Positions 6,861 to 40,875 of a stretch of DNA of 64,000 nucleotides are shown here, in pieces. The stretch is from IMG/VR virus record IMGVR_UViG_3300020057_000035, positions 47,849 to 111,848 of that record, one strand, 5' to 3'. Source of the stretch: a virus. The notes under the pieces were generated by a model. That model saw only the letters and a list, made by a program, of their open reading frames with translations. It made no database searches and had not been told where the DNA came from. Both the position numbers and the translations under genes were made by a program. Position 1 is the stretch's first letter. Each line of letters opens with the position of its first letter.

Positions 6861-7133
6861 TTGGTTGGGGAAGAAGATGGTGTGTTTACTGCAACAAGCA
6901 CTATAAGTGGGGAGTCAAGGATGTTTAGAAGAGACGAAATCGCAAAAGGCACTAATAAAATGCCTTGGGTAGAAAGAGTACCGAACGATCTACTTAAGCA
7001 AAAACCAAAAACAATAGAAAAATGGTATAATAGAGATAGTACTATTAAATGCTTTATTTGTGCATTATCTATAGGTACACTAATTAAAGTTAAAGACGGG
7101 ATTTATACGCATAAAAATTGTCAAGTGAATTAA
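6861..7133 (+). CDS. hypothetical protein with C-terminal CxxC...HxxC motif
   Basis: ORF overlapping the terL start. Confidence 0.5.
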   Translation: MVGEEDGVFTATSTISGESRMFRRDEIAKGTNKMPWVERVPNDLLKQKPKTIEKWYNRDSTIKCFICALSIGTLIKVKDGIYTHKNCQVN

Positions 7134-21513: not shown

Positions 21514-22367
<854 letters not shown>

Positions 22368-22517
22368 AGTTAAAATCATAATAAATATTCATTTATATTT
22401 TGTTTTAATATATCCCATTCAAGTTGTGTCATTGCGTGCTTGGCTATATTCTCAAACCAAGTCTTCTGATGCCCTAATTGTCACTGGTTATTTGATCATC
22501 CCCTAAAATAGAATACT

Positions 22518-22593
22518 TGGAGCAGACAGGAGGCCATGATCCCCCAACCTCTTCATTACAAATGAAGTGCTCTACCACTTGAGCTATGCCTGC
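22518..22593 (-). tRNA. tRNA-Thr(TGT) with atypical T-loop
   Basis: GCAGGCA/TGTCTGC acceptor stem, CTTCA-TTTGTAA-TGAAG anticodon arm, T-loop ATCATGG, TCCA end. Confidence 0.85.
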
Positions 22594-22626
22594 AAAATCG
22601 CACTCTGCCAACTGAGTTACACTAGC
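22594..22626 (-). pseudogene. 5' half of a tRNA
   Basis: GCTAGTG-TA-ACTCAGTTGGCAGAGT-GCGATTTT ends at the anticodon loop, abutting tRNA-Thr. Confidence 0.6.
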
Positions 22627-22698
22627 CATTATATTATTCTAGCGAAAATACTGTAATAATCAGTATAGTTGAGTGGCATGCTAACAATCTACTGTCTC

Positions 22699-22727
22699 AG
22701 TATAACAGATTGAGTCCGTATTGTCAA
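22699..22727 (-). promoter_or_regulatory. sigma70-type promoter for the tRNAs
   Basis: TTGACA-17 bp-TATACT. Confidence 0.65.
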
Positions 22728-22962
22728 GAGATGTCTAAAAAATCAAAACCTCTTTATTTCTCATTTTAATCTTTTTTGCTTTAATTGTTATATTGTCTTG
22801 ATATGCTGCATATCCGTACGCAATATTAAAATGATCATATGCAAAATTTATAGCTTCTGACAAATAAAACCCATAGTGAATATATGAATACAATTTAATA
22901 ATAGAAAAATCATCTTTTTTTGTGTAAAAATCTACTATACATTCTTCTGGTTTATTAATTTT

Positions 22963-23292
22963 TTAACTCCATATTATGCTAAGTTCTGGTGTTAAACCAG
23001 AAGTTCTCCAATAAGGTTTATTATATTCTTCTTCTATAATAGTTACTTCTGGTGTTTCTATTCCTGTGAAAGTATTATTTAAATAATTGAATAATTCGCT
23101 TAATTTTTCTAATGTATGCGAATCAATTTTTACTCTCAAAAAAGCACACCAATAAACACTAGTTACATTTACTATTTTTCCGCACCCTAACATATTTAAT
23201 TTATTATGTAAGTCTTCGAATGTCTCTAATATCTCTGACTCATCTATGTCTTCTACTGTAATGTTTATTTTAAATTCTAATTCTTTTGTCAT
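22963..23292 (-). CDS. hypothetical protein
   Basis: ORF downstream of the ligase C half. Confidence 0.55.
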   Translation of the reverse strand: MTKELEFKINITVEDIDESEILETFEDLHNKLNMLGCGKIVNVTSVYWCAFLRVKIDSHTLEKLSELFNYLNNTFTGIETPEVTIIEEEYNKPYWRTSGLTPELSIIWS

Positions 23293-23301
23293 ATTTTTCT
23301 C

Positions 23302-23916
23302 TTATTCTTTAAAGTATAAAATGAATTCTGGATTTATTATTTTGAAACTAAGTCTACCTAGTTCTTTGTCTCTAATAGTATTGTCTTCTGATCTAATTAC
23401 AATACCCTCTGCCCACACATTATTATTTATTGTTGATTTAATTGTTGCTTTTGCAACTAATTCATCTATAGTAAATAATAATAAATCAGTACCTAAAAAG
23501 GGTACGTGTCTTAAGTCATTTATTTCACAAAAGACAAGCATCTCAAGAAAATCTAAATATCTATTTTCTTTTCTTGAGTATACGTTAAATACATATAGAT
23601 CTTGTTTAGAGAGTTTTAGTTTATTTCCTTGTATTCCCGGCCCTACTAATTCTCCTTGAACTACATAGTCATCAGAATATTTAGTTAGAATTGATTTAAG
23701 ATTTAATAGTTTTGCTATTCTCCAATAAGAATTATCTTCTGTTTCTTTTATATCTAAGTTTTTACTACACACATGTAATTCACTGTCTTCTACAAATGCA
23801 GTCATACTTGAGTTATGCACTAATATACCATTTGCAAAAAAACTATGAGTATGTTTTGTTTCTATATCATACTTATTTGAACTACAAGAAATCCTAGTTA
23901 TTTTTTTAATTTTCAT
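23302..23916 (-). CDS. Split RNA ligase, C half: 35-aa C-intein plus ligase motifs III-V
   Basis: YDIETKHTHSFFANGILVHN|SSMT; VQGELVGPGIQGN, LYVFNV, EGIVIR, SFKIINPEF. Confidence 0.92.
   Translation of the reverse strand: MKIKKITRISCSSNKYDIETKHTHSFFANGILVHNSSMTAFVEDSELHVCSKNLDIKETEDNSYWRIAKLLNLKSILTKYSDDYVVQGELVGPGIQGNKLKLSKQDLYVFNVYSRKENRYLDFLEMLVFCEINDLRHVPFLGTDLLLFTIDELVAKATIKSTINNNVWAEGIVIRSEDNTIRDKELGRLSFKIINPEFILYFKE
23812..23916 (-). mobile_element. C-intein of a naturally split intein
   Basis: blocks F/G ending HN, +1 Ser; Lys-rich. Confidence 0.92.
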
Positions 23917-24050
23917 TTATTCATTTTTCCTATTTCTTCTAAAATAAAACTATCTAACTCTTCATTGTGATATTAATTGAACCTCACTCGAATTAATCCA
24001 ACCTGTACTAATTACTTTAATATTAGATGTACTCAGGTTACTCCCTTGTG

Positions 24051-24569
24051 CTAGTATATCACCTTTGACTGAGAAATGTCAATAGAGGAGCTTTGCTCGC
24101 GCAAGACAGTAGGAAATGTCCAAGAAGCCGCAGTTAAACGAAAAACAATTTTAGTAGGAACATGGGTTACCCCCCTCTCCCACCTAGATACACTACTTTG
24201 ACTCACCCCTAGTGCTTTAGCGAATCCGCGCTGAGTTTGATGATTTTTTGTTAGGCCAGATGCTCTTAGTTCTATTAACTCTTCTGGCATCATTGGAGGA
24301 AGCAAACAATATTCTCTATTTCTCTCTGCATTAGCACGTTTATATTCTTCCATGCCGTTTATTTGTTCCTTATGGCTTTTCTTTATTAGATTATTGTACA
24401 AATGAAATATATCATAGTTAAATTTACGTGTTGCAAGTATCATCGGCGTAGTTGTGCCTTTTTTATTAGGAAATTGTTCTTCTATGCTCAAGCTACGCTG
24501 TCTCCAAGTTATTAATTTTCTCTTGGAAAAATACCCCATAAGCATACCATCATTGTCTTTAGTCATCAT
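24051..24569 (-). CDS. XRE-family HTH protein (HTH in the C-terminal part)
   Basis: TQRGFAKALGVSQSSVSRWERG. Confidence 0.7.
   Translation of the reverse strand: MMTKDNDGMLMGYFSKRKLITWRQRSLSIEEQFPNKKGTTTPMILATRKFNYDIFHLYNNLIKKSHKEQINGMEEYKRANAERNREYCLLPPMMPEELIELRASGLTKNHQTQRGFAKALGVSQSSVSRWERGVTHVPTKIVFRLTAASWTFPTVLREQSSSIDISQSKVIY
24053..24082 (-). promoter_or_regulatory. sigma70-type promoter upstream of the ligase C half
   Basis: TTGACA-18 bp (ending TGA)-TATACT. Confidence 0.6.
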
Positions 24570-24581
24570 TATTAGTTTGTC

Positions 24582-25481
24582 CTAATCCTTCGATATAAGC
24601 GGTATTTTAATGCACTTTACTGCTGGTCGTATGCCGCAAAGTGGCAGTTGGGTAGGTGTTGAAATAGGAGTCAGTGATCCCACTGGAATTAATGTTTCTG
24701 GTGTCCTAGTAGGTGTGAAAGAAAAAGTAGGTGTTCTAGTAGGGGTAGAGGTGCTAAGTGCTATTGTGGATGTTCCTACTGTGCCTGGAGGCGTATTTGC
24801 GGGAGTTCCCGAGCATACATAAACAGCACACACACCAGCAATATCATCAGAATGTGGCACTGTCATAATACCATGATATGAAGCAAACATTACTGCATTT
24901 GTATCTAAAGAATGTCCAAGTCCTGCGCAATGCCCTATTTCGTGCCATAGAACTGTTTTAAGATCTATTCCACCTGATCCCCAATTAGCATTAGAGGATA
25001 TCTCTATATCACATTCATCTGCTCCTGTCCACCAACAAGCAGTAGCTAATACAGTACCAGATATAGGATACCAATTTATAGTATTTTCTCCGTTAGAAGC
25101 AGCACCTCTACATAAATTAGCATTATCTGAAATAGAAGACAATCCTCCATATTGTAAAGATAGGTTTGGTGTTATTCCATTCCAGCTAGTAGTTACTGCG
25201 TTTGATACAACAGCTTCGTCATTTACTATAGTTAGAGATTTTCCTTCTGGATTATATCTAGTTACTATAGGCATTTTACTTCTCACAAAACCAGTTAACA
25301 CATAATTTTCTATGTTTATTTCTTCTTTTTCTAAAGAATAAACATCTATATTAAAAGTAGATCCATCTGCAAATGTTTTAGAGAATGTGTTAAAGTGTGC
25401 TTCTGCTTTAGTCATATTACTAAAAGTAATAAACACACCAAAAAACATAAACAAACTTAATAATAAATAAATATATCTCAT
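24582..25481 (-). CDS. secreted matrixin-family (M10) metalloprotease
   Basis: signal peptide, HEIGHCAGLGHS, Met-turn AVMFA, DDIAG, Pro/Thr linker. Confidence 0.88.
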   Translation of the reverse strand: MRYIYLLLSLFMFFGVFITFSNMTKAEAHFNTFSKTFADGSTFNIDVYSLEKEEINIENYVLTGFVRSKMPIVTRYNPEGKSLTIVNDEAVVSNAVTTSWNGITPNLSLQYGGLSSISDNANLCRGAASNGENTINWYPISGTVLATACWWTGADECDIEISSNANWGSGGIDLKTVLWHEIGHCAGLGHSLDTNAVMFASYHGIMTVPHSDDIAGVCAVYVCSGTPANTPPGTVGTSTIALSTSTPTRTPTFSFTPTRTPETLIPVGSLTPISTPTQLPLCGIRPAVKCIKIPLISKD

Positions 25482-25506
25482 ATTATTATTCTATCATGTT
25501 GTTTTT

Positions 25507-25730
25507 GTCAATTACTCACTAATTAATTCTACCTCTTACGTCTACTGTATATTACTTTAATGCCCAACCACCACCAACTAATGTTGTTATTGCTAAAATA
25601 ACTCATTGCTTTGCGCGTTCCAAACACCCATGCTCAATAAGAAATTATTATGTGTGGCAGGCGATTGTCAATTCGCCAATAGTGGGAAAAACTTCTCACA
25701 AGCTCACTAATTTATTAGTGAGTAATTGAC
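25507..25730. mobile_element. non-autonomous IS605/tnpB remnant bounded by inverted end copies
   Basis: GTCAATTACTCACTAATTAATT at left, ATTAGTGAGTAATTGAC at right; internal frame ARSKHP...WQAIVNSPIV resembles a TnpB C-terminal tail. Confidence 0.55.
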
Positions 25731-25731
25731 A

Positions 25732-26175
25732 TTAGTGTTCTCCAAAAGCTAATCTGAAATTATTTGGTTTGTATACAGATTCTCTCTGCATCATTCTCTC
25801 CTCTAATTCTGGATTGTGTTTTCTTATCAAAGATAAATACTCTTTGTAAAATACAGAATTGTGTTTTTCTTGTATTCCTACTTTGTAATGAGCTAGTTCA
25901 TGCAAACAAACTATCATTGCATCAATATGATCTTTTCCTATTCTTATAATTATATGTCCATCTCCGAAAGTTGTTCCACTAGAAAAAAACCCGCGTTCTT
26001 CTAATTTTCTAGTTTTAGTTATTGGTCTTATTTTTAGCTCTCTGTTTCCCTCTGATTTCCATTCTATTACAGGAGCAAAGGACTCATTATCAAATTCTTT
26101 TTCCAACAATATATACATAAATTTTTTAATTTTGTAATCGTGAAGCTTACTTACTAATATTTCTTTACTTATCAT
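25732..26175 (-). CDS. SprT-like zinc metallopeptidase
   Basis: HELAH...HNSVF. Confidence 0.65.
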   Translation of the reverse strand: MISKEILVSKLHDYKIKKFMYILLEKEFDNESFAPVIEWKSEGNRELKIRPITKTRKLEERGFFSSGTTFGDGHIIIRIGKDHIDAMIVCLHELAHYKVGIQEKHNSVFYKEYLSLIRKHNPELEERMMQRESVYKPNNFRLAFGEH

Positions 26176-26534
26176 TAAAATCCATAATTTGGATTAATGT
26201 ATATTATTTTTTTAGATCGTATATTCATGTCTATTAACGTATTCCAATATTTAATTTCTTCTGTTACACCAACACTATAATTCCATCCATCTAGTTTAAG
26301 TATCCACAACTCATCTGCTAAATTAAGCATATGAAAATCGTGCTTTTCCCATAGCTTAAATCCATGTACATCTGGTTCTTTAATAAATGGAACTAGACCA
26401 TGTGAGTGAGAAATAGGGGAATAAATGAAATACCCTTTACTAACATAATAAGCAGCAACTTCACATACTGCTTTTATCCTGTAATCTCTAGTTTCTTGTG
26501 ATTTATGTGAATATGGACTTGCCAAATAAATCAA
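26175..26534 (-). CDS. DUF1937-like (nucleoside deoxyribosyltransferase fold) protein
   Basis: IYLASPYSH, YSPISHSH, GWNYSVGVTEE. Confidence 0.75.
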   Translation of the reverse strand: MIYLASPYSHKSQETRDYRIKAVCEVAAYYVSKGYFIYSPISHSHGLVPFIKEPDVHGFKLWEKHDFHMLNLADELWILKLDGWNYSVGVTEEIKYWNTLIDMNIRSKKIIYINPNYGF

Positions 26535-28040
26535 GTATTTTTTACAGCTAACTGTAGTGCATTCTCAACGCGATCCCAACCTACACCATAGAGATCTCCA
26601 TAAGTCTTTCGAATGTATCTCCATTCTGATAAAGTATCAGCGAGCATCGTTATCAACTCTTCGTGGGTATTGAGGATACGAAACATCTCCCTCAGTATGT
26701 CATCACAAAAGTCTCCATCATCGCGAACAACCTCACATAGTAAAGTGTTTCCTTGTACTATGTATTGAACACCAAATGTAGTAGACTTATAAAGCTTCCA
26801 TACTGTATCATTTTGTTCACTCACTTGGTATTTATCACCTTTAATAGCTGAGAGTAAAGATACTCTTGTCTTGAAATTAATTGTTGAAAATCTAAAACTC
26901 TACCTTGATTAGTATATCCATACTTTAGAATGGCTTTAAGGCAATTAGGTAAATCGCTGTAATATCCAATAAAGGACTCTACAGTACCCTCAAGAGCCTC
27001 TTTTGTTTTTAGATTTCTTCTTTGTCTATCGTTTTTTCTGTTTACTTGCCAACCTGTTCCCTCTACTGAACATTCAAATATTACCCACTCATCAATTTCT
27101 AATCTAGTTGCATCTCTTGTTGTTTTCATAAGTTTATGTTACTCTCTCTTATTCTGTTTGTCAAGCGGCTCAAAGAATCTTCCATCTTGGCCGCAATATC
27201 CTAGTCTATTTTGTCGTTGTATTTTTGCAAAATTATAAATTTCTGTAATTTCTCCTGTTGATTTATCTATCTCTTCTTTAATCGCAGAAATATGAGTACA
27301 AAAACTCCATCTGTCTCTGTTTCTAGGCTCTATTTTATAATGTTTACATTCTATACAGATTTTTACCAATCTTTTATATTCTCCGGTTCTAAATCAATCA
27401 TTTATTCTATCATTTATTCTATTCACTGCTTCTAAGTATTCACTTACTATTCGCGCCCAATAAAAGTATCTTTTTTTAACATATAATATTGCTATATTAA
27501 AATATTCTGTATTATGTAATCTAACAATATATGCTGCTATTTCCACATCATTAGGATTGTATTTATTTTTACTATTCCATCCCATTTTTTTAACCCAATT
27601 AAACACTACTACATCAGATTTATTTAATAGAAACTCATATACTTCTGATTGTTTTATTTTTTCTATTGCATCATTGGCGTGTCTACAATTTAATACTAGC
27701 TTATTAAGTTTCTTAACATCTGTTCTCGGGGCTAGTACTATAGCACTCATATTATTTAATCCTCTGGGAGGATATAATTATTATCGTTTGCTTTAAGTTG
27801 CGCTAGCATTTCTGCTATCTTAGGGTTTTTGTGCTTCATAAGAGGACTATTATGGTTAGTCTTAGAGTACCACGCTTGAAAACCTCCAGTTACTGTAGTA
27901 GATATATGGAAGGCAATATACCCTTTATCTAATAACTGTTTAGGTATATACCAAAATATGTCATTGTTTTCTAATGAATCAAAAGCGGTAAGAGGGAGAA
28001 ATTTCTCTAAATCTTCGTATAGTTTTTCAATATTAATCAT
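26531..28040 (-). other. run of five small hypothetical genes (26531-26824, 26821-27129, 27139-27369, 27394-27750, 27756-28040)
   Basis: tightly packed co-directional ORFs with no recognisable motifs. Confidence 0.55.
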
Positions 28041-28158
28041 AAATATATATTCTTAATTCTAAACCATGTTTGTTTAGTTTCCCACACTCAGGACAAAGTT
28101 GTGTTGAAGGAAAACTTCTTGAAACGAGTATTGTCTCTGATTTCTTTTGTAAATCATT
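28033..28158 (-). pseudogene. tnpB fragment (zinc-finger region)
   Basis: translates as ETILVSRSFPSTQLCPECGKLNKHGLELRIY. Confidence 0.55.
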
Positions 28159-29014
28159 AAAATTCCTTACCGCTTTGATTTACGTCAAACACAAATAAAC
28201 CCATCCTTCTCCACATTCTCACAACTCTTGGTCGATCATCAATTACAAACAAAACATTCCAAAAATCTTTAATATAGTTATTAAAAATTTCTCTTTTTAC
28301 AATATCATCTGCTCTATGATCTCCTTCTTTTCTCATAAACAAAGCTAAATATTCTACATTGTGTTTCTTGAGCCATTGTTCTGTCTCTTCTCTGAATTCA
28401 GAAGTTCTACCAGACAAAAGTATTATTTCATATGGTAAAGCAGAAATAATATTGTATACAGGCAAATTTAATTCATCATTTATGAAATCTCTCTTGTAGG
28501 GATTTTTATCTCCACCAAAAATCGAGAGTGTGCCGTCGATGTCCACAGTTACGGCTTTTTCTAGTTCTGTGTTTGGTACATATTGTTTTAGTTCTTGAAC
28601 CTGATCTCCATATCGTTTATCATAATCTCTAATTACTTTTTCCCCTACTGATTTATCTCTTAACGAATCGCGTCTGATTGCTTCTTCTACTTCAATAGGT
28701 ACTTGAATAATTTGCATTCCAATATTAGGGTCAATCAATTGTGCAAGCGCAGAAATATGAATAATAGCGTTACCAAAATTAGTATTATCTACTACTACTG
28801 TTTGATTATTCTCAATACCAATTCTGATAATCTCATCTTGAATAAGATTTACAATACGTTCATTTGGTTTACTGTGTCTGGAGTCATGAAGCATGGATCT
28901 TATGTCGTCTTTTGAAACCCTGAGTGATGTGTCTGGTAATTTACTTACTATTTCTCTTGCTTTAGTACTTTTTCCTGCGGCAATTCCCCCTTGCATTACA
29001 ATTATAGTAGACAT
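28157..29014 (-). CDS. pseT: polynucleotide 5'-kinase/3'-phosphatase (T4 PNK-like)
   Basis: GGIAAGKST, DDIR, VDNTN kinase motifs; DIDGTL, LSGR, IDDRP HAD phosphatase motifs. Confidence 0.93.
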   Translation of the reverse strand: MSTIIVMQGGIAAGKSTKAREIVSKLPDTSLRVSKDDIRSMLHDSRHSKPNERIVNLIQDEIIRIGIENNQTVVVDNTNFGNAIIHISALAQLIDPNIGMQIIQVPIEVEEAIRRDSLRDKSVGEKVIRDYDKRYGDQVQELKQYVPNTELEKAVTVDIDGTLSIFGGDKNPYKRDFINDELNLPVYNIISALPYEIILLSGRTSEFREETEQWLKKHNVEYLALFMRKEGDHRADDIVKREIFNNYIKDFWNVLFVIDDRPRVVRMWRRMGLFVFDVNQSGKEF

Positions 29015-29137
29015 TTCTTATATTCCTCATATTTTTTTAAATCTTTATCTAAAAATTTCATTGTTTTATTCTCTAGTAGTTCGTCTTATTTGTCCTATCC
29101 CCGGAAGGTATTCCATTTAGATATATTATTGTTTCCA

Positions 29138-29443
29138 CTATAATTGATCAACTAACATTAAAAGATCCCCCACCTTTAAAAGATCTGCTCTCCTATAACA
29201 ATTCAATTCAGGAACCCAGACCTTGTGATTACCAGTTAAGGTTATATTTGTTCCGTTCTCTAATTCAATTTCATACCAATCATTTGATTTTGAACCTATT
29301 GAATGCCCAACAACATCATCCCAGAACACTTCTTCTTTTTCAGTGTCAAAAGACTTTATTTTACCAGTATATTTAATATCACAAACTTCTTTTATAGTCT
29401 TTGGTCCATCCTCTGTATCTATTACAGCACAGTCCGAAAGACA
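29138..29443 (-). mobile_element. N-intein of a naturally split intein
   Basis: Cys1, block B TLTGNHKVW, RADLLKVGD then stop; acidic; no endonuclease domain. Confidence 0.92.
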
Positions 29444-29992
29444 GCCATCAACTTTCTCTGTGACGTAGATAGGAACGCCAGAATGCCTCTGTAGCACAGT
29501 AGGAACACTCTGTATTCGTGTTTCGTCTGTTTTCGATATGAAACTAGGGAAAGATCCTCGCACGAGTCCAGAGAGCGATCCAATTAAAGGTATCTCATAT
29601 TTATGAATCCCCATTAACTCGGTTACATCCGTTCCTTCTTCAAGAATATCTTGTGTAAATCCATAATTAGACATGAAACTTGATAAATCAGAAATAGGTA
29701 AACATAAGCCTTGTGACACAGATCCGCGCAAGCGAACCGTACGTAATCTGTATCCTTCTTTTGTTTCTCCATTTACATTCATAGTTTTTCTTCCGTCTTT
29801 TTCCATGAATTCAAATAGGGTGTGTATAGGTAAAAAAGCATCAGGTTCAATAAATACAACTGTATCATTTACATTAAATTTGCCTTTTTGTACGCACAAA
29901 TTCCAGCCCAAAACAACCGCTATTTCTAGCAGATCAGCGTTGGGGTGTTTTTTTATTTCTTTAATTTTCTGGATGCTTGCGATTTTTCTCAA
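29138..29992 (-). CDS. Split RNA ligase (DRB0094/Rnl2-like), N half plus 101-aa N-intein
   Basis: RKIASIQKI...HPNAD OB-like domain, LRGSVSQGL, FISKTDETRIQ, motif I EKVDG then CLSDCA intein start. Confidence 0.93.
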   Translation of the reverse strand: MRKIASIQKIKEIKKHPNADLLEIAVVLGWNLCVQKGKFNVNDTVVFIEPDAFLPIHTLFEFMEKDGRKTMNVNGETKEGYRLRTVRLRGSVSQGLCLPISDLSSFMSNYGFTQDILEEGTDVTELMGIHKYEIPLIGSLSGLVRGSFPSFISKTDETRIQSVPTVLQRHSGVPIYVTEKVDGCLSDCAVIDTEDGPKTIKEVCDIKYTGKIKSFDTEKEEVFWDDVVGHSIGSKSNDWYEIELENGTNITLTGNHKVWVPELNCYRRADLLKVGDLLMLVDQL

Positions 29993-30219
29993 AATTAAGA
30001 TGCTCCTTGTTTGTATCTTAACTGAAACTTAGTATTTTGTCAAGCGGTCGGTGACATTTATTTTCCCAACACGCCATCGTAACTTTCTTTCCTTTTTCCC
30101 CCTGCGTTATGTGCCAATGATCAAATGATAAATAAGTATGATAATCTTCTTTTTCATCTTTACACATGTTGCAATATCTTTTTGAACCATCTACTTTAGG
30201 ATAATGGAAATGTCTCATT

Positions 30220-30591
30220 CTAACTCTGCTTTTTGAAAACCCTTACATCTCCTACTTGAACATATTGAACTAGTCTTTTTTTACACCTACTACATATTTC
30301 TATTTTTTCTGTCCACAAACATGCCCACCCAGGATTCCCAGGAAATGCTTCATTGCAATTAGTTGTTACATCTACTCCATTTATTTCAACATATAATTCT
30401 GTACTTTGTATATCTACTCCGTCTACTTCTATATATAATCCAGACATACCATGAGTTTTATCTATTCTAATAGGAAAATCAAATCTATTACATTTTAAAC
30501 ACAATAACTGATTATTCATCCATGATCGATCTACTAATTTAGCTTTTTCTGGATCTGCATTAATTGTTTTAAATCTATTGTTTCTATTCAT
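30220..30591 (-). CDS. hypothetical protein
   Basis: ORF with a short internal duplication LYIEVDGVD/LYVEINGVD. Confidence 0.55.
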   Translation of the reverse strand: MNRNNRFKTINADPEKAKLVDRSWMNNQLLCLKCNRFDFPIRIDKTHGMSGLYIEVDGVDIQSTELYVEINGVDVTTNCNEAFPGNPGWACLWTEKIEICSRCKKRLVQYVQVGDVRVFKKQS

Positions 30592-30643
30592 TTGGTACTA
30601 ATATTGCTCCTTCTACTTAAACTGCATATTAACATTTATTGCC

Positions 30644-33133
30644 TTAGCCAACAGATCCATCCATTTGTAGCTCTATTAATCTATTTAGTTCTACAGCATA
30701 TTCCATTGGTAGTTGTTTTACGATTGGTTCTATAAAGCCATTAACAATCATTTTTGCGGCGGAATCTTCACTCATACCTCTACTCATAAGATAAAATAAT
30801 TGATCTTCACCAAGTTTCGAGACATACGCTTCGTGCTGAATATGTACATCTGATGAATCTATTTCCATCGTCGGATACGTGTCCGAGCGAGAAGTTTCAC
30901 CTACGAGAAGCGCATCACATCTTACATTCGATTTAATGTTTTCACAATTATCATATACTTTAAGTAATCCACGATAACTCGTTCTTCCACCATCAATACT
31001 TACTGATTTTGAAACAACTGTTGAAGTAGTATTAGATGCGCTATGAATTACTTTTCCACCAGCGTCTAAATGTTGTCCTTTTCCAGCAACAGCAAGAGAA
31101 AGTATTTCTCCGTGTGCTCTTTCTCCCATTAAATAAATGCTGGGATACTTTAGAGTTAAGCAACTTCCTCCGTTGAAATCTGTCCATTCCATAACTGAAT
31201 CTTCATATGCAACTGCGCGTTTAGTAACAAGATTATATACATTATTAGACCAATTTTGAATTGTTGTATACCTTACTCTTGCGCCTTTTTTAACTATTAT
31301 TTCTACTACAGCACTGTGTAATGATTCAGAACTATACACGGGGCTGGAACAGTTGTGAACAACAAAACCAGAAGCTAAATAACTATTAGGAAAATCAACA
31401 TTTAAATTATAAACAGGCTCTGAAATATCTCTAGTAGATATTTTTTTAATAGGAACTAGAAAATATTCTCCAGCGTCCCGTACTTCTCGTGAACCATTAC
31501 CCCCTTCTGTCCATTGAACTTGATACAATGCGTGACGCATTATATGCCTACCTAAAATTTCTCCTGACCCAGCTACTCGTGACATACTAATAGTAGAATA
31601 AATATCTAATGTAGCCATAATTGATTGAAGCTGAAGTGCCCACGTTCGAGAGGTAGTGTGTGCTCTTTTCCAATCTACATTTTTTCTTTTGATAACATTA
31701 CCATCACCATACATATATGTTTCTACCAAATTTTTAAGAAATTCTTTATTTTGTCCCATTAAGACAGAAGATAGTTTTTTGCTATATGATCTAGTTCCAA
31801 TATGATTTTTCATTGCATCATATCCTTCGTTTGTATAAACAAGAACTCTTCCCTCATGTTTTTTCTTGTCATAATAAACTGATCCGCTAGATCCATATAA
31901 ATATTTACAAATACTTTGAACTTCTTCAATATATTGTGTTTCATTAATATGAAAGGAGAAACTCAAAGCTTTGTATTTATTACATAATTGCGCAGATCCT
32001 TCAGCAAGATAATATCCAGCTAATCTAGCAAACTCTATAGGCATGTTAATATTTGACTTAATGTGTTTTGGTTTAGGGAACACTAAAAAGTCTCCATCAA
32101 GTACATCTTTTGCTTTAACCCATTCAGGAATAGAATTTATTAGTGATGGGCTATTAACTTCAGGTTTATTTTGCTTACGTTGTTTACGTTTTATTAACAC
32201 TTTAAGTCTTGGAACAATCAACAAGGGGTGTTCTCCCGTAACTGAAAAAGCACTATTTGGTGATATTGGTTTAAATGTAAATAGTGTTCCAGAAAAATCT
32301 CGTACTTGTGTAGCATTAACTCGGACAGGGCTACCGTTTTGATCTAATACATGATCTCCGACTTTTACATCTTCAATTCCAGACCAACTACCGTCCGCCA
32401 TGGATATTGATTCTCCCGCTATAAGACACCCTTCAAGGTAGTGGACTTGACTATCTTCATCAGCAATAATCAATGTTCTTTCGAATTGTCCCATTACTTC
32501 TGTATTGATTCTAAAATATGCCTGTAAAGGAATATCCACTTTTACACCTTTTGGTATATAAATAAAACTGCCCCCTGACCAACAGGCGCTATTAAGTGCG
32601 GCGTATTTATTATCTCCGGGAGGTATTATTGTACTAAAATATTCTCTAAGTAAATCTGGATATTCTATTAGTGCTTGATCTGTACTTAAAAATATAACAC
32701 CAAGTTTTTCAAGATCTTCCCTTAATTTATGATAAATAACAGTAGAATCCATTTGCGCTCCAACGCCAGCCAAATACTTCTTTTCTGCTTCTGGTACCCC
32801 TAATTTATCAAAAGTTGTTTTGATATATTCTGGTACATCTTCCCAAGAACTTTCGTCTTTATCAGAAGCTGTTACATAATACCTTATGTTATCAAAGTCG
32901 ATATTTTCTAGTTGATTTGTGCTTGTCCACGTTGGATTTTTTTGTTTATAAAATAAATCAAGTGATTTAAGTCTAAATTTTCTCATCCACTCCGGTTCAT
33001 TTTTCATATCAGATATTGTATTAATAATATCAGAACTTAAACCCTTATTAGATTTAAATACAGGAGGGGTGTCATCGTGGAAACCATACTTGGTTTCGTA
33101 ATTTTCTTCTTTTACTAATGTAGCACTGTTCAT
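30644..33133 (-). CDS. sufB: Fe-S cluster assembly scaffold SufB with intein
   Basis: WSGGSFIYIPKGV, PLQAYFRIN, GQFERTLII, HYLEG|CSSPVY, LHSAVVE, RYTTIQNW, FYLMSRG. Confidence 0.96.
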   Translation of the reverse strand: MNSATLVKEENYETKYGFHDDTPPVFKSNKGLSSDIINTISDMKNEPEWMRKFRLKSLDLFYKQKNPTWTSTNQLENIDFDNIRYYVTASDKDESSWEDVPEYIKTTFDKLGVPEAEKKYLAGVGAQMDSTVIYHKLREDLEKLGVIFLSTDQALIEYPDLLREYFSTIIPPGDNKYAALNSACWSGGSFIYIPKGVKVDIPLQAYFRINTEVMGQFERTLIIADEDSQVHYLEGCLIAGESISMADGSWSGIEDVKVGDHVLDQNGSPVRVNATQVRDFSGTLFTFKPISPNSAFSVTGEHPLLIVPRLKVLIKRKQRKQNKPEVNSPSLINSIPEWVKAKDVLDGDFLVFPKPKHIKSNINMPIEFARLAGYYLAEGSAQLCNKYKALSFSFHINETQYIEEVQSICKYLYGSSGSVYYDKKKHEGRVLVYTNEGYDAMKNHIGTRSYSKKLSSVLMGQNKEFLKNLVETYMYGDGNVIKRKNVDWKRAHTTSRTWALQLQSIMATLDIYSTISMSRVAGSGEILGRHIMRHALYQVQWTEGGNGSREVRDAGEYFLVPIKKISTRDISEPVYNLNVDFPNSYLASGFVVHNCSSPVYSSESLHSAVVEIIVKKGARVRYTTIQNWSNNVYNLVTKRAVAYEDSVMEWTDFNGGSCLTLKYPSIYLMGERAHGEILSLAVAGKGQHLDAGGKVIHSASNTTSTVVSKSVSIDGGRTSYRGLLKVYDNCENIKSNVRCDALLVGETSRSDTYPTMEIDSSDVHIQHEAYVSKLGEDQLFYLMSRGMSEDSAAKMIVNGFIEPIVKQLPMEYAVELNRLIELQMDGSVG
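31352..32428 (-). mobile_element. Intein in SufB, LAGLIDADG type, 359 aa
   Basis: CLIAGE start, TGEHP, LAGYYLAEG and YMYGDG, VVHN end, +1 Cys. Confidence 0.94.
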
Positions 33134-33137
33134 TTCA

Positions 33138-33503
33138 CTAACCTACTATTTCTCTAAGTCTGTCTAAAGCTTTTGGATCTATTAGTAGTCCATTAACTTT
33201 TATATTCATATCATCTACTATAATGTCATCTTTTGTTGGGTATGTCAAGTTTTTATCTAAAACTAAAATACCAGAAAGATGATTTAATATTCTTCTTTTC
33301 CACATATCTGCATAGTCTATACCACCACCAGACCAAACAACAATTAAACCTAGATTTTTATTATGCCATTTTTCTACTAAGTCTACAAGTTCTGTATTTA
33401 CTGTGTAATGATCACCTTTCCACACTGTAGTCCCTTCAGGAATGTGATTGGGTGGATCATGCCAAATTATCAACGTATTATCACAATCGCAGTATAGTAT
33501 CAT
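33138..33503 (-). CDS. HAD-superfamily hydrolase
   Basis: DCDNTL, WSGGG, IVDD. Confidence 0.75.
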   Translation of the reverse strand: MILYCDCDNTLIIWHDPPNHIPEGTTVWKGDHYTVNTELVDLVEKWHNKNLGLIVVWSGGGIDYADMWKRRILNHLSGILVLDKNLTYPTKDDIIVDDMNIKVNGLLIDPKALDRLREIVG

Positions 33504-33537
33504 TTTAAGAAAGGTGAAATCAATTCCTCACCTGTCT

Positions 33538-33566
33538 ACTATATCACACATGTAGGTGAATGTCAA
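33538..33566 (-). promoter_or_regulatory. sigma70-type promoter upstream of the HAD-sufB-ligase(N)-pseT run
   Basis: TTGACA-17 bp (ending TGA)-TATAGT. Confidence 0.6.
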
Positions 33567-34001
33567 TCACTCCCACCAATCGTACCAATGTTTCTTAAAG
33601 CTATTATTTCCGTCTTTCCATTTTTTATAGCCTTGATACATACATGTTTCTGGGTTAAATATTCCTTCATATGTTGGATATTGTTGAATCCAACAAGAAG
33701 CACCAGACGTAGGATTTATTGCACATAAATCTCCGCCGCTCTCATTATGTATAATATAAGCAAGTTCATCTAAAGGCCAATCATATTTTTCTGCATATTT
33801 CATCCAATTAAATCTATCTGGATGTTCATAGCAAGTATTATATACTGGTTTGGTTTCTCCTACAGAAGAAGCTATTACTTTTGATTGTTGTATTTCTGTT
33901 ATCGATGGGAAAAACTCTTCAAAGATATAAACTGTTGAGTTTGATGTTTGATTAAACATTGATAAAATCAATAATATAAAAAACAGTAATATGCTAAACA
34001 T
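33567..34001 (-). CDS. secreted lytic transglycosylase-like protein
   Basis: signal/TM segment, IIHNESGG...AINPTSGA..WIQ. Confidence 0.6.
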   Translation of the reverse strand: MFSILLFFILLILSMFNQTSNSTVYIFEEFFPSITEIQQSKVIASSVGETKPVYNTCYEHPDRFNWMKYAEKYDWPLDELAYIIHNESGGDLCAINPTSGASCWIQQYPTYEGIFNPETCMYQGYKKWKDGNNSFKKHWYDWWE

Positions 34002-34024
34002 AATACGCTCCTTATATGTAATTT

Positions 34025-34110
34025 TGGCTGAAAGTAAGTGATTCGCACACTTGAGGCTTTAACACCCGCTTGTTTTCAAGACAAGTTCTTCGTCTATCCA
34101 GTCACTTTCA
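34025..34110 (-). tRNA. tRNA-Ser(TGA) with atypical D- and T-loops
   Basis: TGAAAGT/ACTTTCA acceptor stem, CTTGT-CTTGAAA-ACAAG anticodon arm, long variable arm, GCCA end. Confidence 0.8.
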
Positions 34111-34114
34111 ATTT

Positions 34115-34188
34115 TGGCTCCCCCACTAGGTCTCGAACCTAGCCCAAATTTTTAACAGAAATTTATACTGCTACTATACTATGGAGGA
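34115..34188 (-). tRNA. tRNA-Asn(GTT)
   Basis: TCCTCCA/TGGGGGA acceptor stem, AATTT-CTGTTAA-AAATT anticodon arm, GTTCGAG, GCCA end. Confidence 0.85.
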
Positions 34189-34270
34189 ACTATATAAAAC
34201 TAAAATAATTCTTAAACTATTTTAACTGAGCATGTAAACTCAGACCTAAGAATTATTAATTTATTAAATT

Positions 34271-34346
34271 TGGCAAGGGTGACAGGAATCGAACCTGTAT
34301 TATGGGGTCTGGAAGCCCATGTGTTTATCCATTACACTACACCCCC
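34271..34346 (-). tRNA. tRNA-Trp(CCA)
   Basis: GGGGGTG/CACCCTT acceptor stem, loop TTCCAGA, GTTCGATT, GCCA end. Confidence 0.85.
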
Positions 34347-34374
34347 GCACTATATCTATTATACCACAAACTGA

Positions 34375-34959
34375 TCAATCCCAAAGCTGGGGTAGTAAAA
34401 CTCCTAATTGAACTACACACCATGGCACAAAGTTTTGTCCATAAAGTGCTTCTGGATCTTTTTTCTTTTGCATTGCTTTATAAGCAACAATAGAACTAAA
34501 TAACTGCTCTACTCCTTTTAGTTCTTCATGTTTTGCCATAAAGTTCATGTCGTGTTTACATGCCCATATATATCCAGCAAGGAATTGAGACATAAACTCT
34601 AATATTGTTTCTTCATTTTCCCAATATTTCTTTACAGATATTTTTATTTCTTTATATGGATTATCTTTATGAAAATGCCAACCTCTGGCTAGATTTTCTG
34701 CATCTTCTATAGATCTATATTTAGTCCATATGTTTTTAGTATTATATTTAAGATTATCATAATCATCTATGATTAATATATCAGACTTAATCCACGATAA
34801 AACTTTACTTCTTGCGTCATCTTCTCTTTGATCTTCGTCTCCCTTAGAACACGTAATGTAGTTAGAATTTATTAATTCAGTACATAGTTCACTAAAAACT
34901 ACTGCTTTATCGTCTTTCATATACTCTTTTAGATCAAATTTGCTTTTTATTTTTTTCAT
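34375..34959 (-). CDS. hypothetical protein
   Basis: 194-aa ORF with GAGG RBS. Confidence 0.65.
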   Translation of the reverse strand: MKKIKSKFDLKEYMKDDKAVVFSELCTELINSNYITCSKGDEDQREDDARSKVLSWIKSDILIIDDYDNLKYNTKNIWTKYRSIEDAENLARGWHFHKDNPYKEIKISVKKYWENEETILEFMSQFLAGYIWACKHDMNFMAKHEELKGVEQLFSSIVAYKAMQKKKDPEALYGQNFVPWCVVQLGVLLPQLWD

Positions 34960-34980
34960 ATTTGCCTCTTATTTTAATTA

Positions 34981-35054
34981 TGGAGTGTAGTTCAAGAATC
35001 GAACTTGATCCAGTTCGGCCACAACGAACCATTCTGCCAATAAACTAACCACAC
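34981..35054 (-). tRNA. tRNA-His(GTG)
   Basis: GTGTGGT/ACTACAC acceptor stem, GTTCG-TTGTGGC-CGAAC anticodon arm, TTCGATT, TCCA end. Confidence 0.85.
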
Positions 35055-35089: not shown

Positions 35090-35452
35090 TCAACTACCGC
35101 AGGAGCGAGCTTTACCAGAACCATCTGCTGTCTGAAAACTTGAGCCACAAGAGCAACTTTTTGTTGCATTTGGATTGAAAATAGAAAAACCACTCTTCAT
35201 AATGTCTTCTACATAGTCTATCTCTACTCCATCTATGTGTTTAATAGAGTCTGGGTCGATAACTATCCTAACATCCTTTATTGATAATACAATATCATCA
35301 TCTTCTGCTTCTTTACTTAAAGCCATTGCATATTGGTACCCAGAACACCCACCACCAGATACGAACACACGAAATAATCCGTCTGGCATTTCTTTGTGAA
35401 TAAGTATCTCTTTAACTTTGTTTGCTGCCGTTGCTGTTAGTGTTAATTCCAT
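35090..35452 (-). CDS. iscA: A-type Fe-S carrier (IscA/SufA/ErpA, HesB family)
   Basis: GGGCSGYQY, NPNATKSCSCGSSF. Confidence 0.93.
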   Translation of the reverse strand: MELTLTATAANKVKEILIHKEMPDGLFRVFVSGGGCSGYQYAMALSKEAEDDDIVLSIKDVRIVIDPDSIKHIDGVEIDYVEDIMKSGFSIFNPNATKSCSCGSSFQTADGSGKARSCGS

Positions 35453-37882: not shown

Positions 37883-38326
37883 TTAAACACAGACAATAAA
37901 CCTGCCATCTAGTATATTTTCTAACATCGGTTTTACTTGTATTTCCCAATTTAATCCACCTAAACCGCATCCTAACTTTGGTAATGCAATTTTATCGTCT
38001 TTTGAAACATGCTCACTTACTAAAATAGCATTTTGTTTAATTAGTTCAATAGAAGAAGAGTCTTTCCAATGTATTTTAGTAGGAAAGCATATTAAGGATT
38101 TTGGTTTTCCGTTTATATCAGAAGTGGTTATTGCTTTAGGCTTATCTTTTTTATATTGTATCGCCTTGCCATATAAGTACTGTAGTCTTGAATATTTATC
38201 AGATGCTTGCTTAGCCAAACCTGCTCCCATAACAGCAGTTCCATCTTTTCTGATTTGACAATTTGTGGGTATTATGATATAGTCACAATCTATTTCCCAA
38301 ATATCTATCCCAGCTACAGTAATCAA
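37883..38326 (-). CDS. macro-domain (ADP-ribose processing) protein
   Basis: VMGAGLAKQ, FPTKIHW, ALPKLGCGLGGLNW. Confidence 0.88.
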   Translation of the reverse strand: MITVAGIDIWEIDCDYIIIPTNCQIRKDGTAVMGAGLAKQASDKYSRLQYLYGKAIQYKKDKPKAITTSDINGKPKSLICFPTKIHWKDSSSIELIKQNAILVSEHVSKDDKIALPKLGCGLGGLNWEIQVKPMLENILDGRFIVCV

Positions 38327-40875
38327 TTAGAAAAATAAACAGGATACAGGGCCTCCAGACCTCTTTTTTCGCTCATCACAAGCACAGTTTGTGATGGTTT
38401 ACTTATTTTACCATATGCCTTAAGGTACCAGTTGCTTCCGCCGTCAATCGTGCCATTCTGACATACTGTGATTCCTCCGACTCTGAAACTAGCGAAATCA
38501 TGCCTGTGTCCCGTAAGTACTAACTCGGGTGTGCATTTAAATATGTTTGATAAAGCCCATTGTGGTAGTAATCTTTGTAGATCCCACACTGGTCCTCTCC
38601 ATTGATCTCCATGCATCATTACTACATCGTGACTTAATGAGTTAAGTTTACCCCACCAATTTTCGTGTATATTCCATTTTATATTTGATTGATTTATACA
38701 TTTATCTTGCGCCCACCAAGCTAACATTGTATCAAAGTTGTCTTCTGGATCAGCATAATCATTTTTACCATTTGGTCTACCATGATTACCGGGAACACTA
38801 TCTACTATTACTTCTGGAAAATAACTTGCCATGTCCATAGCTAATGATGCTACTAATCTTGCTGCCATTGGTATTTGTCTTGTTATTCTATGTGAATTAG
38901 CTGTCTTATCTAACCCAGAAACGTTTTGTCCAGCGTAAATAAAACAGTTATGAGTAACAACACCATCTGCTATAAAGGTATGATCTTGATCGACGGTTAT
39001 GTTATACACAGGCTCTGCTATTTCACTTTTGTTTATCTCTAACACCTTAGAATATCTACACCCTAAAGGAGGATCTACGACTCTTCCTTTATCACAAACT
39101 GGATAAGTGGTAACTCTCCTAGTCCTTTTTTTGTTGCCCCACCTTTTATTATATATAGGTGTATAAGAGCCTACTTTCATATTTAAATCTGAGGAGTTAC
39201 ACATAGAAACCCACAACACAGACTCCATTGATCCTCCTTGTGGAAGAGGACATATTCTAGTTTGTGATCTAATTCTAGATGTTAATAATCCCGAAGTGAC
39301 ACACAATTCATTAATATCTCTAATAAGATCTTTATTAGTAGAGCTATAAACTATTTGTCCTAGTTTATTAACGTATCCATCTGAATCTAAATATCCCCTA
39401 AGAAATGCTAATTTATACTCATTAGATAAATTAAATACCCATTTTGGAACCCGTTTAGTTCTAGCATATCCAGCTACACCAGCATTAACCATTATCTCTG
39501 CTGCTTGTTTTGAACTAAACCTAGATCCGCTTTCATTTAGACCAATGTGTATTTGTTCTCCGTTGTGTTTTATAAATAATTGTTTACATATATCCCAATA
39601 TCTATCCATGTATCCAATATTTTTATTATCATGAGATAAATAAATACCAGAAGGATTTCCTTTTATGTCTCTTGTTAAACACCCATTCCCTAAGTAAAAA
39701 CCCAATATTTCCATTAACTCAATAGATGCTGTTCCAACCGGAGTATAATTACTTTCAGATTTAACATCATCAACTATACATAATAAATCCCCCTCTCTAA
39801 CATCAGAGGCTCTGATGTATTCATGTGTGGTTATGTATCTATTTCTCTTTGGAAGAACATGAGTAGATATTTTAGTTCTTCGTTGTACCAAAATAGGATG
39901 TTCTGCATTAGCTTTAATTGTTTTCTCTATAGATCCAATTGTATATATTGGATCTATCCCAGTCATTTCAGAAGCAATTACTTCTCTTGCTTTAAACCCA
40001 CTCCCTGTATATGCCCAAACATAATCTCCTTTTTGTATATTTTGAATTTCTATTGGACCTGTCGGCGTAGACACTATAGATCCAGCAGGTAAGCATCCTT
40101 CGACGAGATCTCCAAGTAAGACTAACCTACCAGTATTGATTGGACAACCAGACGCTTTGAAGTGTTCTGTGATTTTTCTTGCTGCGTCCATTAGTCTAGG
40201 TATTCTTTCTTCTTCCATTATTTTAATACCTATCCCATTTTCCATTTTTCCTATTTGCCAATCAGAAGCCACTACAATAATTTCTCTCTCACTCTTTGAA
40301 GAATTATTTTTATTAGGAATTGGAACGATAGGAAATCTTAATTCTGGGGTTGAGTCATGTAGGTCTTTTAATTCGAATCTCATAAAGTCTCGTAATGAGG
40401 TTAAGTATGTATTTTTTCTTATTAATTGATTTTTTTGTTCAAATGCTCTTTTTGCCATTTCAAGATTAGTAGCATCGGGCAACAGAGATCCCTCTTCTTG
40501 AAGTATCTCTTCTGTAGTCCATTCTAAATCAGAATTATGGCACACAGAAGAACAAAAGAAGTTATTAGCATTTACTGGAACAAATCTATTTATGCAAAGT
40601 TTATTTTTACATCGTCTTGTTATTGATGTTTCTGTAATTTCTTCTTTTATTATTTTTGAAATTCCTGCTCCCTTTCCTCTAGAAATAAACTTACCATGTA
40701 CTCTTTTTACATATTCTGATACGGATTTTGCACTCTTAATTACACCGAAATTTGTAGCTATACTTTCAGATATGTTTTTTCCTATATGTACATCATCACT
40801 ATTATTGATCTCTTGATCAATAAAATCAGATATAAGTTTTTTTGTTTCTTTATCACACTCTTTATAAAGAATCAA
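38323..40875 (-). CDS. calcineurin-like metallophosphoesterase with intein
   Basis: SDWQIG, LGDLVEG|C, VPGNHGR, MHGD, TGHRH. Confidence 0.88.
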   Translation of the reverse strand: MILYKECDKETKKLISDFIDQEINNSDDVHIGKNISESIATNFGVIKSAKSVSEYVKRVHGKFISRGKGAGISKIIKEEITETSITRRCKNKLCINRFVPVNANNFFCSSVCHNSDLEWTTEEILQEEGSLLPDATNLEMAKRAFEQKNQLIRKNTYLTSLRDFMRFELKDLHDSTPELRFPIVPIPNKNNSSKSEREIIVVASDWQIGKMENGIGIKIMEEERIPRLMDAARKITEHFKASGCPINTGRLVLLGDLVEGCLPAGSIVSTPTGPIEIQNIQKGDYVWAYTGSGFKAREVIASEMTGIDPIYTIGSIEKTIKANAEHPILVQRRTKISTHVLPKRNRYITTHEYIRASDVREGDLLCIVDDVKSESNYTPVGTASIELMEILGFYLGNGCLTRDIKGNPSGIYLSHDNKNIGYMDRYWDICKQLFIKHNGEQIHIGLNESGSRFSSKQAAEIMVNAGVAGYARTKRVPKWVFNLSNEYKLAFLRGYLDSDGYVNKLGQIVYSSTNKDLIRDINELCVTSGLLTSRIRSQTRICPLPQGGSMESVLWVSMCNSSDLNMKVGSYTPIYNKRWGNKKRTRRVTTYPVCDKGRVVDPPLGCRYSKVLEINKSEIAEPVYNITVDQDHTFIADGVVTHNCFIYAGQNVSGLDKTANSHRITRQIPMAARLVASLAMDMASYFPEVIVDSVPGNHGRPNGKNDYADPEDNFDTMLAWWAQDKCINQSNIKWNIHENWWGKLNSLSHDVVMMHGDQWRGPVWDLQRLLPQWALSNIFKCTPELVLTGHRHDFASFRVGGITVCQNGTIDGGSNWYLKAYGKISKPSQTVLVMSEKRGLEALYPVYFSN
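38947..40095 (-). mobile_element. Intein in metallophosphoesterase, LAGLIDADG type, 383 aa
   Basis: CLPAGS start, NAEHP, LGFYLGNG and FLRGYLDSDG, VTHN end, +1 Cys. Confidence 0.92.

Follow-up and report, generated by a model that had tools for sequence, protein, structure and literature searches.

The DNA analysed here is a stretch of 64,000 nucleotides, called the window below, from the virus record IMGVR_UViG_3300020057_000035 of IMG/VR. It covers bases 47849-111848 of that 111,848-base record, whose completeness is estimated at 73%. On the minus strand, the window contains a gene for the iron-sulfur (Fe-S) assembly protein SufB. This gene is interrupted in frame by an intein, and its open reading frame (ORF) divides into the following parts.

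30644..33133, minus strand: sufB precursor ORF of 829 amino acids, stop codon included (from the ORF list, Pfam and an alignment to Escherichia coli SufB).
32429..33133, minus strand: N-extein, residues 1-235, ending ...QVHYLEG, with His at -5 and Lys at -38 (from the E. coli SufB alignment).
31352..32428, minus strand: intein of 359 amino acids, residues 236-594, Cys1...His358-Asn359, assigned to class 1 with a LAGLIDADG domain.
31529..32056, minus strand: approximate extent of the predicted endonuclease domain, intein residues ~125-300 (from Pfam LAGLIDADG_3, model helices and Foldseek).
30647..31351, minus strand: C-extein, residues 595-829, starting CSSPVY, with Cys595 as the +1 residue (from the E. 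coli SufB alignment).

The 829-residue precursor matches the Pfam family SUFBD_core (PF01458) with 259.5 bits against a cut-off of 27, and SufBD_N with 34 bits against 23.5. E. coli SufB (PDB 5awf) matches residues 28-236 and 594-829, on either side of the insertion, with an E value of 2.4e-104. The insertion is exactly 359 amino acids long, and its junctions are HYLEG/CLIAG and VVHN/CSSP (the slash marks the splice point). These results bear out a preliminary description of the stretch, made from the sequence alone, which had proposed a full-length sufB with a 359-residue intein at HYLEG/C. Inside the insertion, LAGLIDADG_3 scores 33.2 bits (cut-off 22.5), and Hom_end_hint and Intein_splicing both score below their cut-offs.

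In the 5awf alignment, Cys595 is aligned with C254 of E. coli SufB, and it adjoins Gly235 once the precursor is spliced. On the SufBC2D scaffold, C254 is described as the accepted first site to take up the persulfide, and Y224, R226, N228 and C405 of SufB are described as functionally important (bioRxiv 10.64898/2026.05.18.725997). The same alignment places the C405-equivalent cysteine in the C-extein, within 'NVRCDALLVG', and the patch equivalent to Y224/R226/N228 in the N-extein, where it reads 'YFRIN'. Both are kept in the phage protein. Because the +1 nucleophile of the intein is the catalytic cysteine of SufB, the precursor would be non-functional before splicing.

The intein contains the residues of the splicing blocks. 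Cys236, the block A nucleophile, directly follows HYLEG. Block B, with the pattern TxxH, reads T64-G-E-H67, and the C-terminal junction reads VVH358-N359/C595. C1, T64, H67, H358 and N359 do not vary in an alignment of 46 inteins of the SufB-site allele. LAGYYLAEG (E143) and YMYGDGN (D242) form the two LAGLIDADG helices. Both acidic residues are present in the phage copy and are at least 90% conserved in the 46 inteins.

An AlphaFold2 model made from the same alignment has a mean predicted local distance difference test score (pLDDT) of 94.9 and a predicted template modelling score (pTM) of 0.92, with no segment below a pLDDT of 50. Model helices 131-143 and 228-242 are the two LAGLIDADG motifs. 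The top Foldseek matches of the model are PI-SceI (E 1.5e-19), the Tli VMA intein (template modelling score, TM, 0.73), PI-TkoII and PI-PfuI, and the free-standing LAGLIDADG enzymes I-DmoI and I-Tsp061I match its middle domain. PI-SceI, the Tli and Pho VMA inteins, PI-TkoII and PI-PfuI resemble the phage copy in its predicted fold, Hint with an inserted double-motif LAGLIDADG domain (Foldseek E 1.5e-19 to 3e-13, TM at most 0.73), but they are only 11-17% identical to it and occur in other host proteins. The conserved residues and the model point to a canonical class-1 intein with a predicted Hint fold and an apparently intact endonuclease. From these features, the phage precursor is probably competent for splicing and the endonuclease is probably active.

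The preliminary description had compared the element with the intein in the SufB protein of Mycobacterium tuberculosis. That intein is described as 359 amino acids long, between a 252-residue N-extein and a 235-residue C-extein, with Cys1, His67 (the block-B His), His358, Asn359 and Cys+1 (PMC8891592). The phage intein aligns without gaps to residues 253-611 of P0240, a protein named M. tuberculosis SufB by its source, with the same insertion junction and an E value of 4e-144. In this pairwise alignment, a check proposed with the original comparison, 198 of the 359 residues are identical (55%) and 254 are positives. The site and length (359 amino acids in both) are the same, as stated there, and the motifs quoted there, AFSVTGEHPLL, EFARLAGYYLAEG, WKRAHTTSRTWALQLQSI and YQVQWTEGG, are all present in the phage intein. 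The residue before EFARLAGYYLAEG is I in the phage and L in M. tuberculosis.

Like the M. tuberculosis SufB (Pps1) intein, the phage intein lies at HYxEG/C before the C254 equivalent and is followed by a C-extein of 235 residues. The two also share Cys1, the block-B Thr and His67, His358-Asn359, Cys+1, His-5 and an intact LAGLIDADG domain. Unlike the M. tuberculosis intein, the phage intein is phage-borne and sits in a Dehalococcoidia-type extein that is ~57-64% identical to the mycobacterial extein. It is preceded by Lys rather than His at -38 and followed by SS rather than TA at +2/+3, and its G+C content at third codon positions (GC3) is 0.18 rather than ~0.8.

The allele is widespread. One genome per prokaryote species was scanned with the intein alignment as the query, and at least 279 encoded relatives were found among 600 pattern matches listed; 80 loci were kept. 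All 80 lie in sufB. The junction pattern xYxEG/C...HN/C is found in 76 of them, and the other four are cut or partial. Among the kept loci, those from the Actinomycetota are 52-63% identical to the phage intein. The Chloroflexota (Anaerolineae, Thermoflexus), Armatimonadota, Acidobacteriota, Bipolaricaulota, groups of the candidate phyla radiation (CPR), Cyanobacteriota, Eisenbacteria, Thermoplasmata and others are 34-42% identical.

The highest intein identity found, 63% over 359 amino acids, is to a protein of an uncultured Acidimicrobiales metagenome-assembled genome (L034, the same as P0002). This protein has the same allele as the phage. Unlike the phage protein, it contains a second intein, is 1250 amino acids long and has an Actinomycetota-type extein that is 59-63% identical to that of the phage. 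Its genome is cellular and GC-rich, with an intein GC3 of 0.72. A protein search with the intein region against 5.8 billion proteins gave 206 matches, and among the 120 of these that were listed, none exceeds 63% identity besides the phage's own cluster. The term 'M. tuberculosis-like' is correct in that the two inteins are homologous and allelic. It is too narrow in that the allele occurs in sufB of many phyla and the nearest relative of the phage copy is from the Acidimicrobiales, and the copy itself branches at the base of the Actinomycetota-type group or below it, outside Mycobacterium.

The genes on both sides of sufB are phage genes according to PHROGs and Pfam. They include a large terminase, a family A DNA polymerase, a primase, a DnaB-type helicase, a RecA/UvsX-like recombinase, a Cas4-like nuclease, RuvC, RNase HII, PNKP, an RNA ligase, ribonucleotide reductase and several methyltransferases. 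The sufB gene lies 30 kb inside the window, between the RNA ligase and PNKP genes and a group of tRNA, RuvC and exonuclease genes. It begins 4 bases past the stop codon of the upstream gene, in a long row of genes on the same strand.

The GC content is flat across the window, at ~0.32. The intein has a GC content of 33.6% and a GC3 of 0.18, the exteins have a GC3 of 0.21-0.22, and twelve other phage genes range from 0.11 to 0.23. In the cellular counterparts, GC3 is 0.88-0.95 in the closest sufB genes and 0.72-0.92 in the Actinomycetota-type inteins. Since the intein and the exteins both have the phage-like GC3 of ~0.2, both have been recoded completely, which argues for an old and stable residence. 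This is in agreement with the preliminary description, in which the AT-rich intein was considered long resident.

The stretch is present in ten microbial-mat runs, and the contigs of four runs were compared. A 21.6-kb contig from run X4 spans positions 30240-34500 with 10 differences and no gaps. The contigs of runs X5 and X6 bridge each intein junction.

None of the other phage-derived sufB sequences found contains an intein. A scan of IMG/VR with SufB gave four loci; each lacks an intein, is 58-66% identical and lies at the end of a contig. In the phage collection, 34 records match SufB, none with an intein and none covering 80% or more of the query. Most of these matches are at record ends or in unannotated fragments and resemble the host flanks of prophages. 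The Microcystis phage MaAM05 has an annotated sufB, which, like that of the window, is an auxiliary gene; it is 42.7% identical and matches both exteins. The phage SufB also matches phrog_12033 (E 4e-165). Unlike the gene in the window, the MaAM05 sufB and PHROG 12033 have no intein. Among the papers found on SufB inteins, phages, Chloroflexi and sufB auxiliary metabolic genes, no intein-bearing phage sufB came up.

The tendency of such matches, the four IMG/VR loci among them, to lie at record or contig ends or to resemble host flanks raises the possibility that the arrangement is an artefact, either a phage/host chimera or a mis-binned cellular fragment. The position of sufB deep inside the window, in a tight row of phage genes, does not fit this. 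Neither does its composition, which is that of phage genes and far from that of any close cellular sufB, nor the fact that independent contigs of other runs, up to 21.6 kb long, show the same arrangement. A chimera of the contig with host DNA, a concern raised in the preliminary description, is very unlikely in view of the flanking phage genes, the uniform GC3 and the bridging contigs. The probability of an artefact of either kind is close to negligible.

The phage itself is distant from cultured phages. Megablast found nothing similar to 24 kb of its sequence among 50,697 phage records, and the identity of its PolA and TerL to their counterparts in cultured phages does not exceed 31%. No related phages were found in scans with PNKP and the RecA-like protein.

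Separate phylogenies of the intein and the extein, as suggested in the preliminary description, show discordant ancestries. In the intein tree (92 rows), the phage falls within a 47-row Actinomycetota-type clade. This clade has a Shimodaira-Hasegawa-like approximate likelihood ratio test (SH-aLRT) support of 100 and a stem of 0.86. Within it, the phage forms a sister group to 43 Actinomycetota-type rows (SH-aLRT 97), and the membership supports are 96-100. The path length from the phage intein is 0.83 to the nearest Actinomycetota-type row versus 2.35 to the nearest row of the other type. The AT-rich inteins of the other type (CPR, cyanobacteria; GC3 0.30-0.37) are no nearer to the phage intein, so base composition does not explain its placement. 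Taken together with the topology test given below, this tree makes the phage intein a deep lineage that joins the Actinomycetota-type inteins close to or at their base and has no recent mycobacterial origin.

The extein sequences are most closely related to Chloroflexota. A search with the C-extein listed 119 non-self matches with 77-85% identity. These proteins are 466-482 amino acids long, all too short to contain the intein. The named relatives are Tepidiformaceae, Tepidiforma, Dehalococcoidia and other Chloroflexota. Over the whole extein (469 columns), the highest identity is 78%, reached with intein-less SufBs; full-length SufBs that contain an intein do not exceed 64.4%. The extein alignment was made with MAFFT --add --keeplength; hmmalign --trim aligned just one extein half of the intein-bearing proteins.

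In the extein tree (119 rows), the phage is placed within a 36-row clade with an SH-aLRT support of 100, in which all other members are intein-less. This clade is separate from a 39-row Actinomycetota clade (SH-aLRT 99). An approximately unbiased (AU) test rejects the grouping of the phage extein with the Actinomycetota exteins (log-likelihood, lnL, difference 65.4, p 2e-11). The sampled intein-bearing Chloroflexota contain the other intein type and appear elsewhere in the extein tree. From these phylogenies, the intein and its sufB share no history in any sampled lineage. The different affinities of the two suggest that the intein entered the gene lineage sideways and was not inherited with the gene. 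Lateral entry at the conserved homing site would be the simplest account of the discordance.

Traces of such an entry were sought beside the junctions. A co-conversion tract was not accepted there: GC3 is 0.33 and 0.42 in the adjacent 12-codon windows, and 25% and 11% of windows are as high. At the amino-acid level, the flanking residues are so similar in every group that donor and recipient cannot be distinguished.

The discordance could also have arisen in cells. The phage would then be a passive carrier of a sufB that already contained the intein when it was taken from an AT-rich bacterium outside the sample, perhaps the host of the phage. The Dehalococcoidia-type sufB of that donor would have acquired the intein or anciently kept it. 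The equal recoding of intein and exteins is compatible with this account and gives no sign of separate arrival times. Deep branching of the intein at or below the base of the Actinomycetota-type group is as expected of an old separate lineage. The site DNA of intein-less, GC-rich Dehalococcoidia-type genes is nearly identical to Actinomycetota flanks (L087 versus L009), so homing between such genomes, and thus between cells, is feasible. However, all 35 close relatives of the phage protein in the extein tree lack the intein, and the short lengths of the listed C-extein matches and the 63% ceiling on intein identity among the 120 proteins listed also stand against co-capture. It is a possible but rather unlikely origin.

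Strain variation at the locus was seen among the compared contigs. The intein is carried by two strain variants besides the window sequence, and the 829-codon frame is open in at least three variants. In the X4/X5 variant (protein P0001), the intein differs by three amino-acid changes, W488R, D510G and H530Q, and the exteins differ by two. In the X6/X7 variant, four synonymous differences (at 32435, 32437, 32438 and 32441) fall within 7 bases, in N-extein codons -5 to -3. They change CAC TAC CTT to CAT TAT TTG directly beside the N-terminal junction, and the rest of 5 kb shows only scattered differences. This cluster, at 32435..32441, might be a scar left by gene conversion or co-conversion. 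In the contigs of the four runs, no intein-less joint was seen, which is no evidence of absence, since contigs drop rare variants.

These variants bear on whether the element is a decaying passenger. The endonuclease might be dead and the intein might persist since its precise loss is rare, or sufB itself might be a relic. All three intein differences of the X4/X5 variant change an amino acid, one of them a Trp conserved within the close clade, and this variant also has its two extein changes. The missing intein-less allele gives no indication of ongoing homing cycles, and His-38 has been lost. Against decay, the frame is open over its whole length in the strain variants. All residues required for splicing have been kept, as have the two acidic residues of the LAGLIDADG motifs and the key residues of SufB, and no part of the model has low confidence. 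Although the extein has been recoded completely, it still shares 78-85% identity with cellular SufBs, which points to purifying selection. Decay of the intein or the gene is improbable.

The phage has a second Fe-S biogenesis gene, 2 kb upstream of sufB and on the same strand.

35090..35452, minus strand: A-type Fe-S carrier (SufA/IscA/ErpA-like) of 120 amino acids (PF01521 Fe-S_biosyn, E 2e-18, 67 bits against a cut-off of 26.3; phrog_17776).

Five tRNA genes are found in 21515..35054 (Gly-tcc, Thr-tgt, Asn-gtt, Trp-cca and His-gtg), three of them between sufB and the A-type carrier gene. A thioredoxin gene (L104:6586-6888) and a ThyX gene (L104:8633-9448) lie just left of the window.

The combined evidence is best explained by an auxiliary Fe-S assembly sufB of the phage that is matured by splicing, in which the intein was gained laterally and both parts are long resident. 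The probability of this reading is roughly 65%. The intein would have entered the gene lineage by homing or recombination at the conserved site HYxEG/C(T/S)(A/S)P, and intein and extein would both have been recoded afterwards to the AT-rich usage of the phage. With a class-1 intein inserted directly before the C254-equivalent cysteine, the 829-residue precursor would need protein splicing, and only the spliced product of 470 amino acids could act as a scaffold. The phage SufB would presumably work with SufC and SufD of the host, neither of which was found on the 112-kb contig, and with the A-type carrier of the phage. During infection, scaffold subunit and carrier would in this way join the Suf machinery of the host. 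Among the Fe-S clients that the phage itself encodes may be the Cas4-like nuclease.

Several observations weigh against this reading. In the phylogenies, the trees are from 'quick' IQ-TREE searches with SH-aLRT support only, and the groups compared in the AU tests were named after the trees were seen. An AU test on a 31-row subset did not reject a position of the phage intein outside all 15 Actinomycetota-type rows, and this outside tree scored 11.9 lnL better (p 0.745). The phage rows have an unusual amino-acid composition and long branches (0.35-0.45).

In the splicing context, the phage N-extein has Lys at -38, and SS occupies +2/+3, where all compared SufBs have TA. In M. tuberculosis, His-38 is reported to aid N-cleavage and His-5 likewise assists (PMC8891592); His-5 is present in the phage. 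With Lys at -38 and SS at +2/+3, the splicing kinetics could differ from those of M. tuberculosis.

In the gene content, no sufC, sufD, sufS, sufE or sufU was found with Pfam in 120 ORFs of the contig, which is ~73% complete. None of these genes was found in 62 ORFs with PHROGs either, nor with PF01458 in six frames. Nearby sufC and sufD genes are a typical operon trait and are not defining for the SufB protein itself.

The last observation concerns the host. A sufB match is present in 376 of 401 sampled Chloroflexota genomes, and the best C-extein identities are 82% and 79%. These two genes have a GC3 of 0.93-0.95 and their loci are ~66% GC, compared with 32.5% GC in the phage. The genomes with the closest cellular SufBs are therefore unlikely to be the host or the direct donor.

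Other leads to a host are given by side features of the phage. An IS200/IS605-type TnpB gene is present at 14477..15625 on the plus strand (382 amino acids; PF12323, PF01385 and PF07282). Its closest homologues are 69% identical and no homologue exceeds this value; one with a Chloroflexi name is at 47%. The early arm left of the window (G000:C1 182..35797) contains five perfect parS sites (TGTTTCACGTGAAACA) and eight GAAC-N4-GTTC boxes. These sites and boxes do not discriminate between phyla, and none of the TnpB, parS and LexA-box leads was informative about the host.

The phage is rich in inteins, which are also found in TerL, ribonucleotide reductase, the exonuclease and the RNA ligase. The large terminase gene (7118..9625, plus strand, 835 amino acids) has an intein at about residues 207-555 that ends in ...MTTAN/C, with Ala rather than His as the penultimate residue. 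Non-canonical residues are noted for phage inteins by Kelley et al. (2016, PMC5050341). The large subunit of ribonucleotide reductase (56..6004, plus strand, 1982 amino acids) contains two LAGLIDADG-type intein stretches, with HN followed by C, S or T (residues 445 and 1353). It also has an HNH endonuclease domain at ~618-727. The exonuclease (phrog_284; 38323..40875, minus strand, 850 amino acids) contains a LAGLIDADG intein at ~261-643, with the junctions LVEG/CLPAG ... VVTHN/C. This exonuclease intein is the nearest paralogue of the SufB intein in the phage, but it is only 22% identical; neither it nor any other intein of the phage is a copy of the SufB element.

The RNA ligase appears to be encoded in two pieces, at 29138..29992 and 23302..23916 (both minus strand), separated by ~5.2 kb that contain PNKP and other genes. 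The N piece (284 amino acids) has an OB domain and the ligase up to motif KVDG, followed by a Hint N-half of ~100 residues (CLSDCAVID...). The C piece (204 amino acids) begins with a 35-residue Hint C-half ending in GILVHN/S and continues with the remaining ligase. The two match complementary parts of phrog_968 (7-218 and 248-391 of 398) and are a candidate trans-splicing split-intein pair. The DNA polymerase A ORF (49189..52713, minus strand, 1174 amino acids) has an N-terminal uracil-DNA-glycosylase-family domain (38-180) fused to the 3'-5' exonuclease and polymerase, and ~430 C-terminal residues without a Pfam match.

It has long been suggested that phages carry inteins from one bacterium to another. 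The mycobacteriophage inteins described by Kelley et al. (2016, PMC5050341) are, like the SufB intein of the window, phage-borne and equipped with homing endonucleases, and they are proposed vehicles of intein spread. Phage inteins described so far in that source are mostly in phage-specific genes, and those of the mycobacteriophages are reported to show at most 30% similarity to a mycobacterial SufB intein. The phage SufB intein, by comparison, occupies a homing site of cellular sufB genes. The intein allele and the SufB protein were already known, and the new element is an apparently intact phage-borne copy with chimeric ancestry.

Spread of the intein across phyla by phage is plausible and would fit the discordant ancestry of intein and extein. 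A more active role of the phage is doubtful. In that role, the phage would be a shuttle whose endonuclease homes the intein into intein-less sufB genes of hosts or other phages during infection or co-infection and so moves it between phyla, and redox-gated splicing through Cys1/Cys+1 may have been co-opted. In such a case, an Actinomycetota-type intein would have moved into a Chloroflexota-type extein lineage.

In M. tuberculosis, the unspliced intein is described as blocking the binding of SufB to SufC and SufD, and oxidants are described as inhibiting splicing through a Cys1-Cys+1 disulfide, with sensitivity to oxidative and nitrosative stress (PMC8529194). Cys1 and Cys+1 are both present in the phage copy. 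By analogy, it is reasonable to suppose that splicing of the phage SufB may be redox-conditional. If this gating has been co-opted, the Fe-S assembly gene would be switched on only under suitable intracellular conditions.

The phage sufB has the same intein allele, at exactly the same homing site, as cellular sufB genes of many phyla, and its intein and extein differ in ancestry, which makes it a concrete candidate for phage-mediated intein transfer. It is also an auxiliary metabolic gene whose product would form only after splicing at the persulfide-acceptor cysteine, which makes post-translational gating possible. As a 55%-identical homologue of a much-studied mycobacterial intein, from a non-pathogen source, the phage intein would be useful for mechanistic work.

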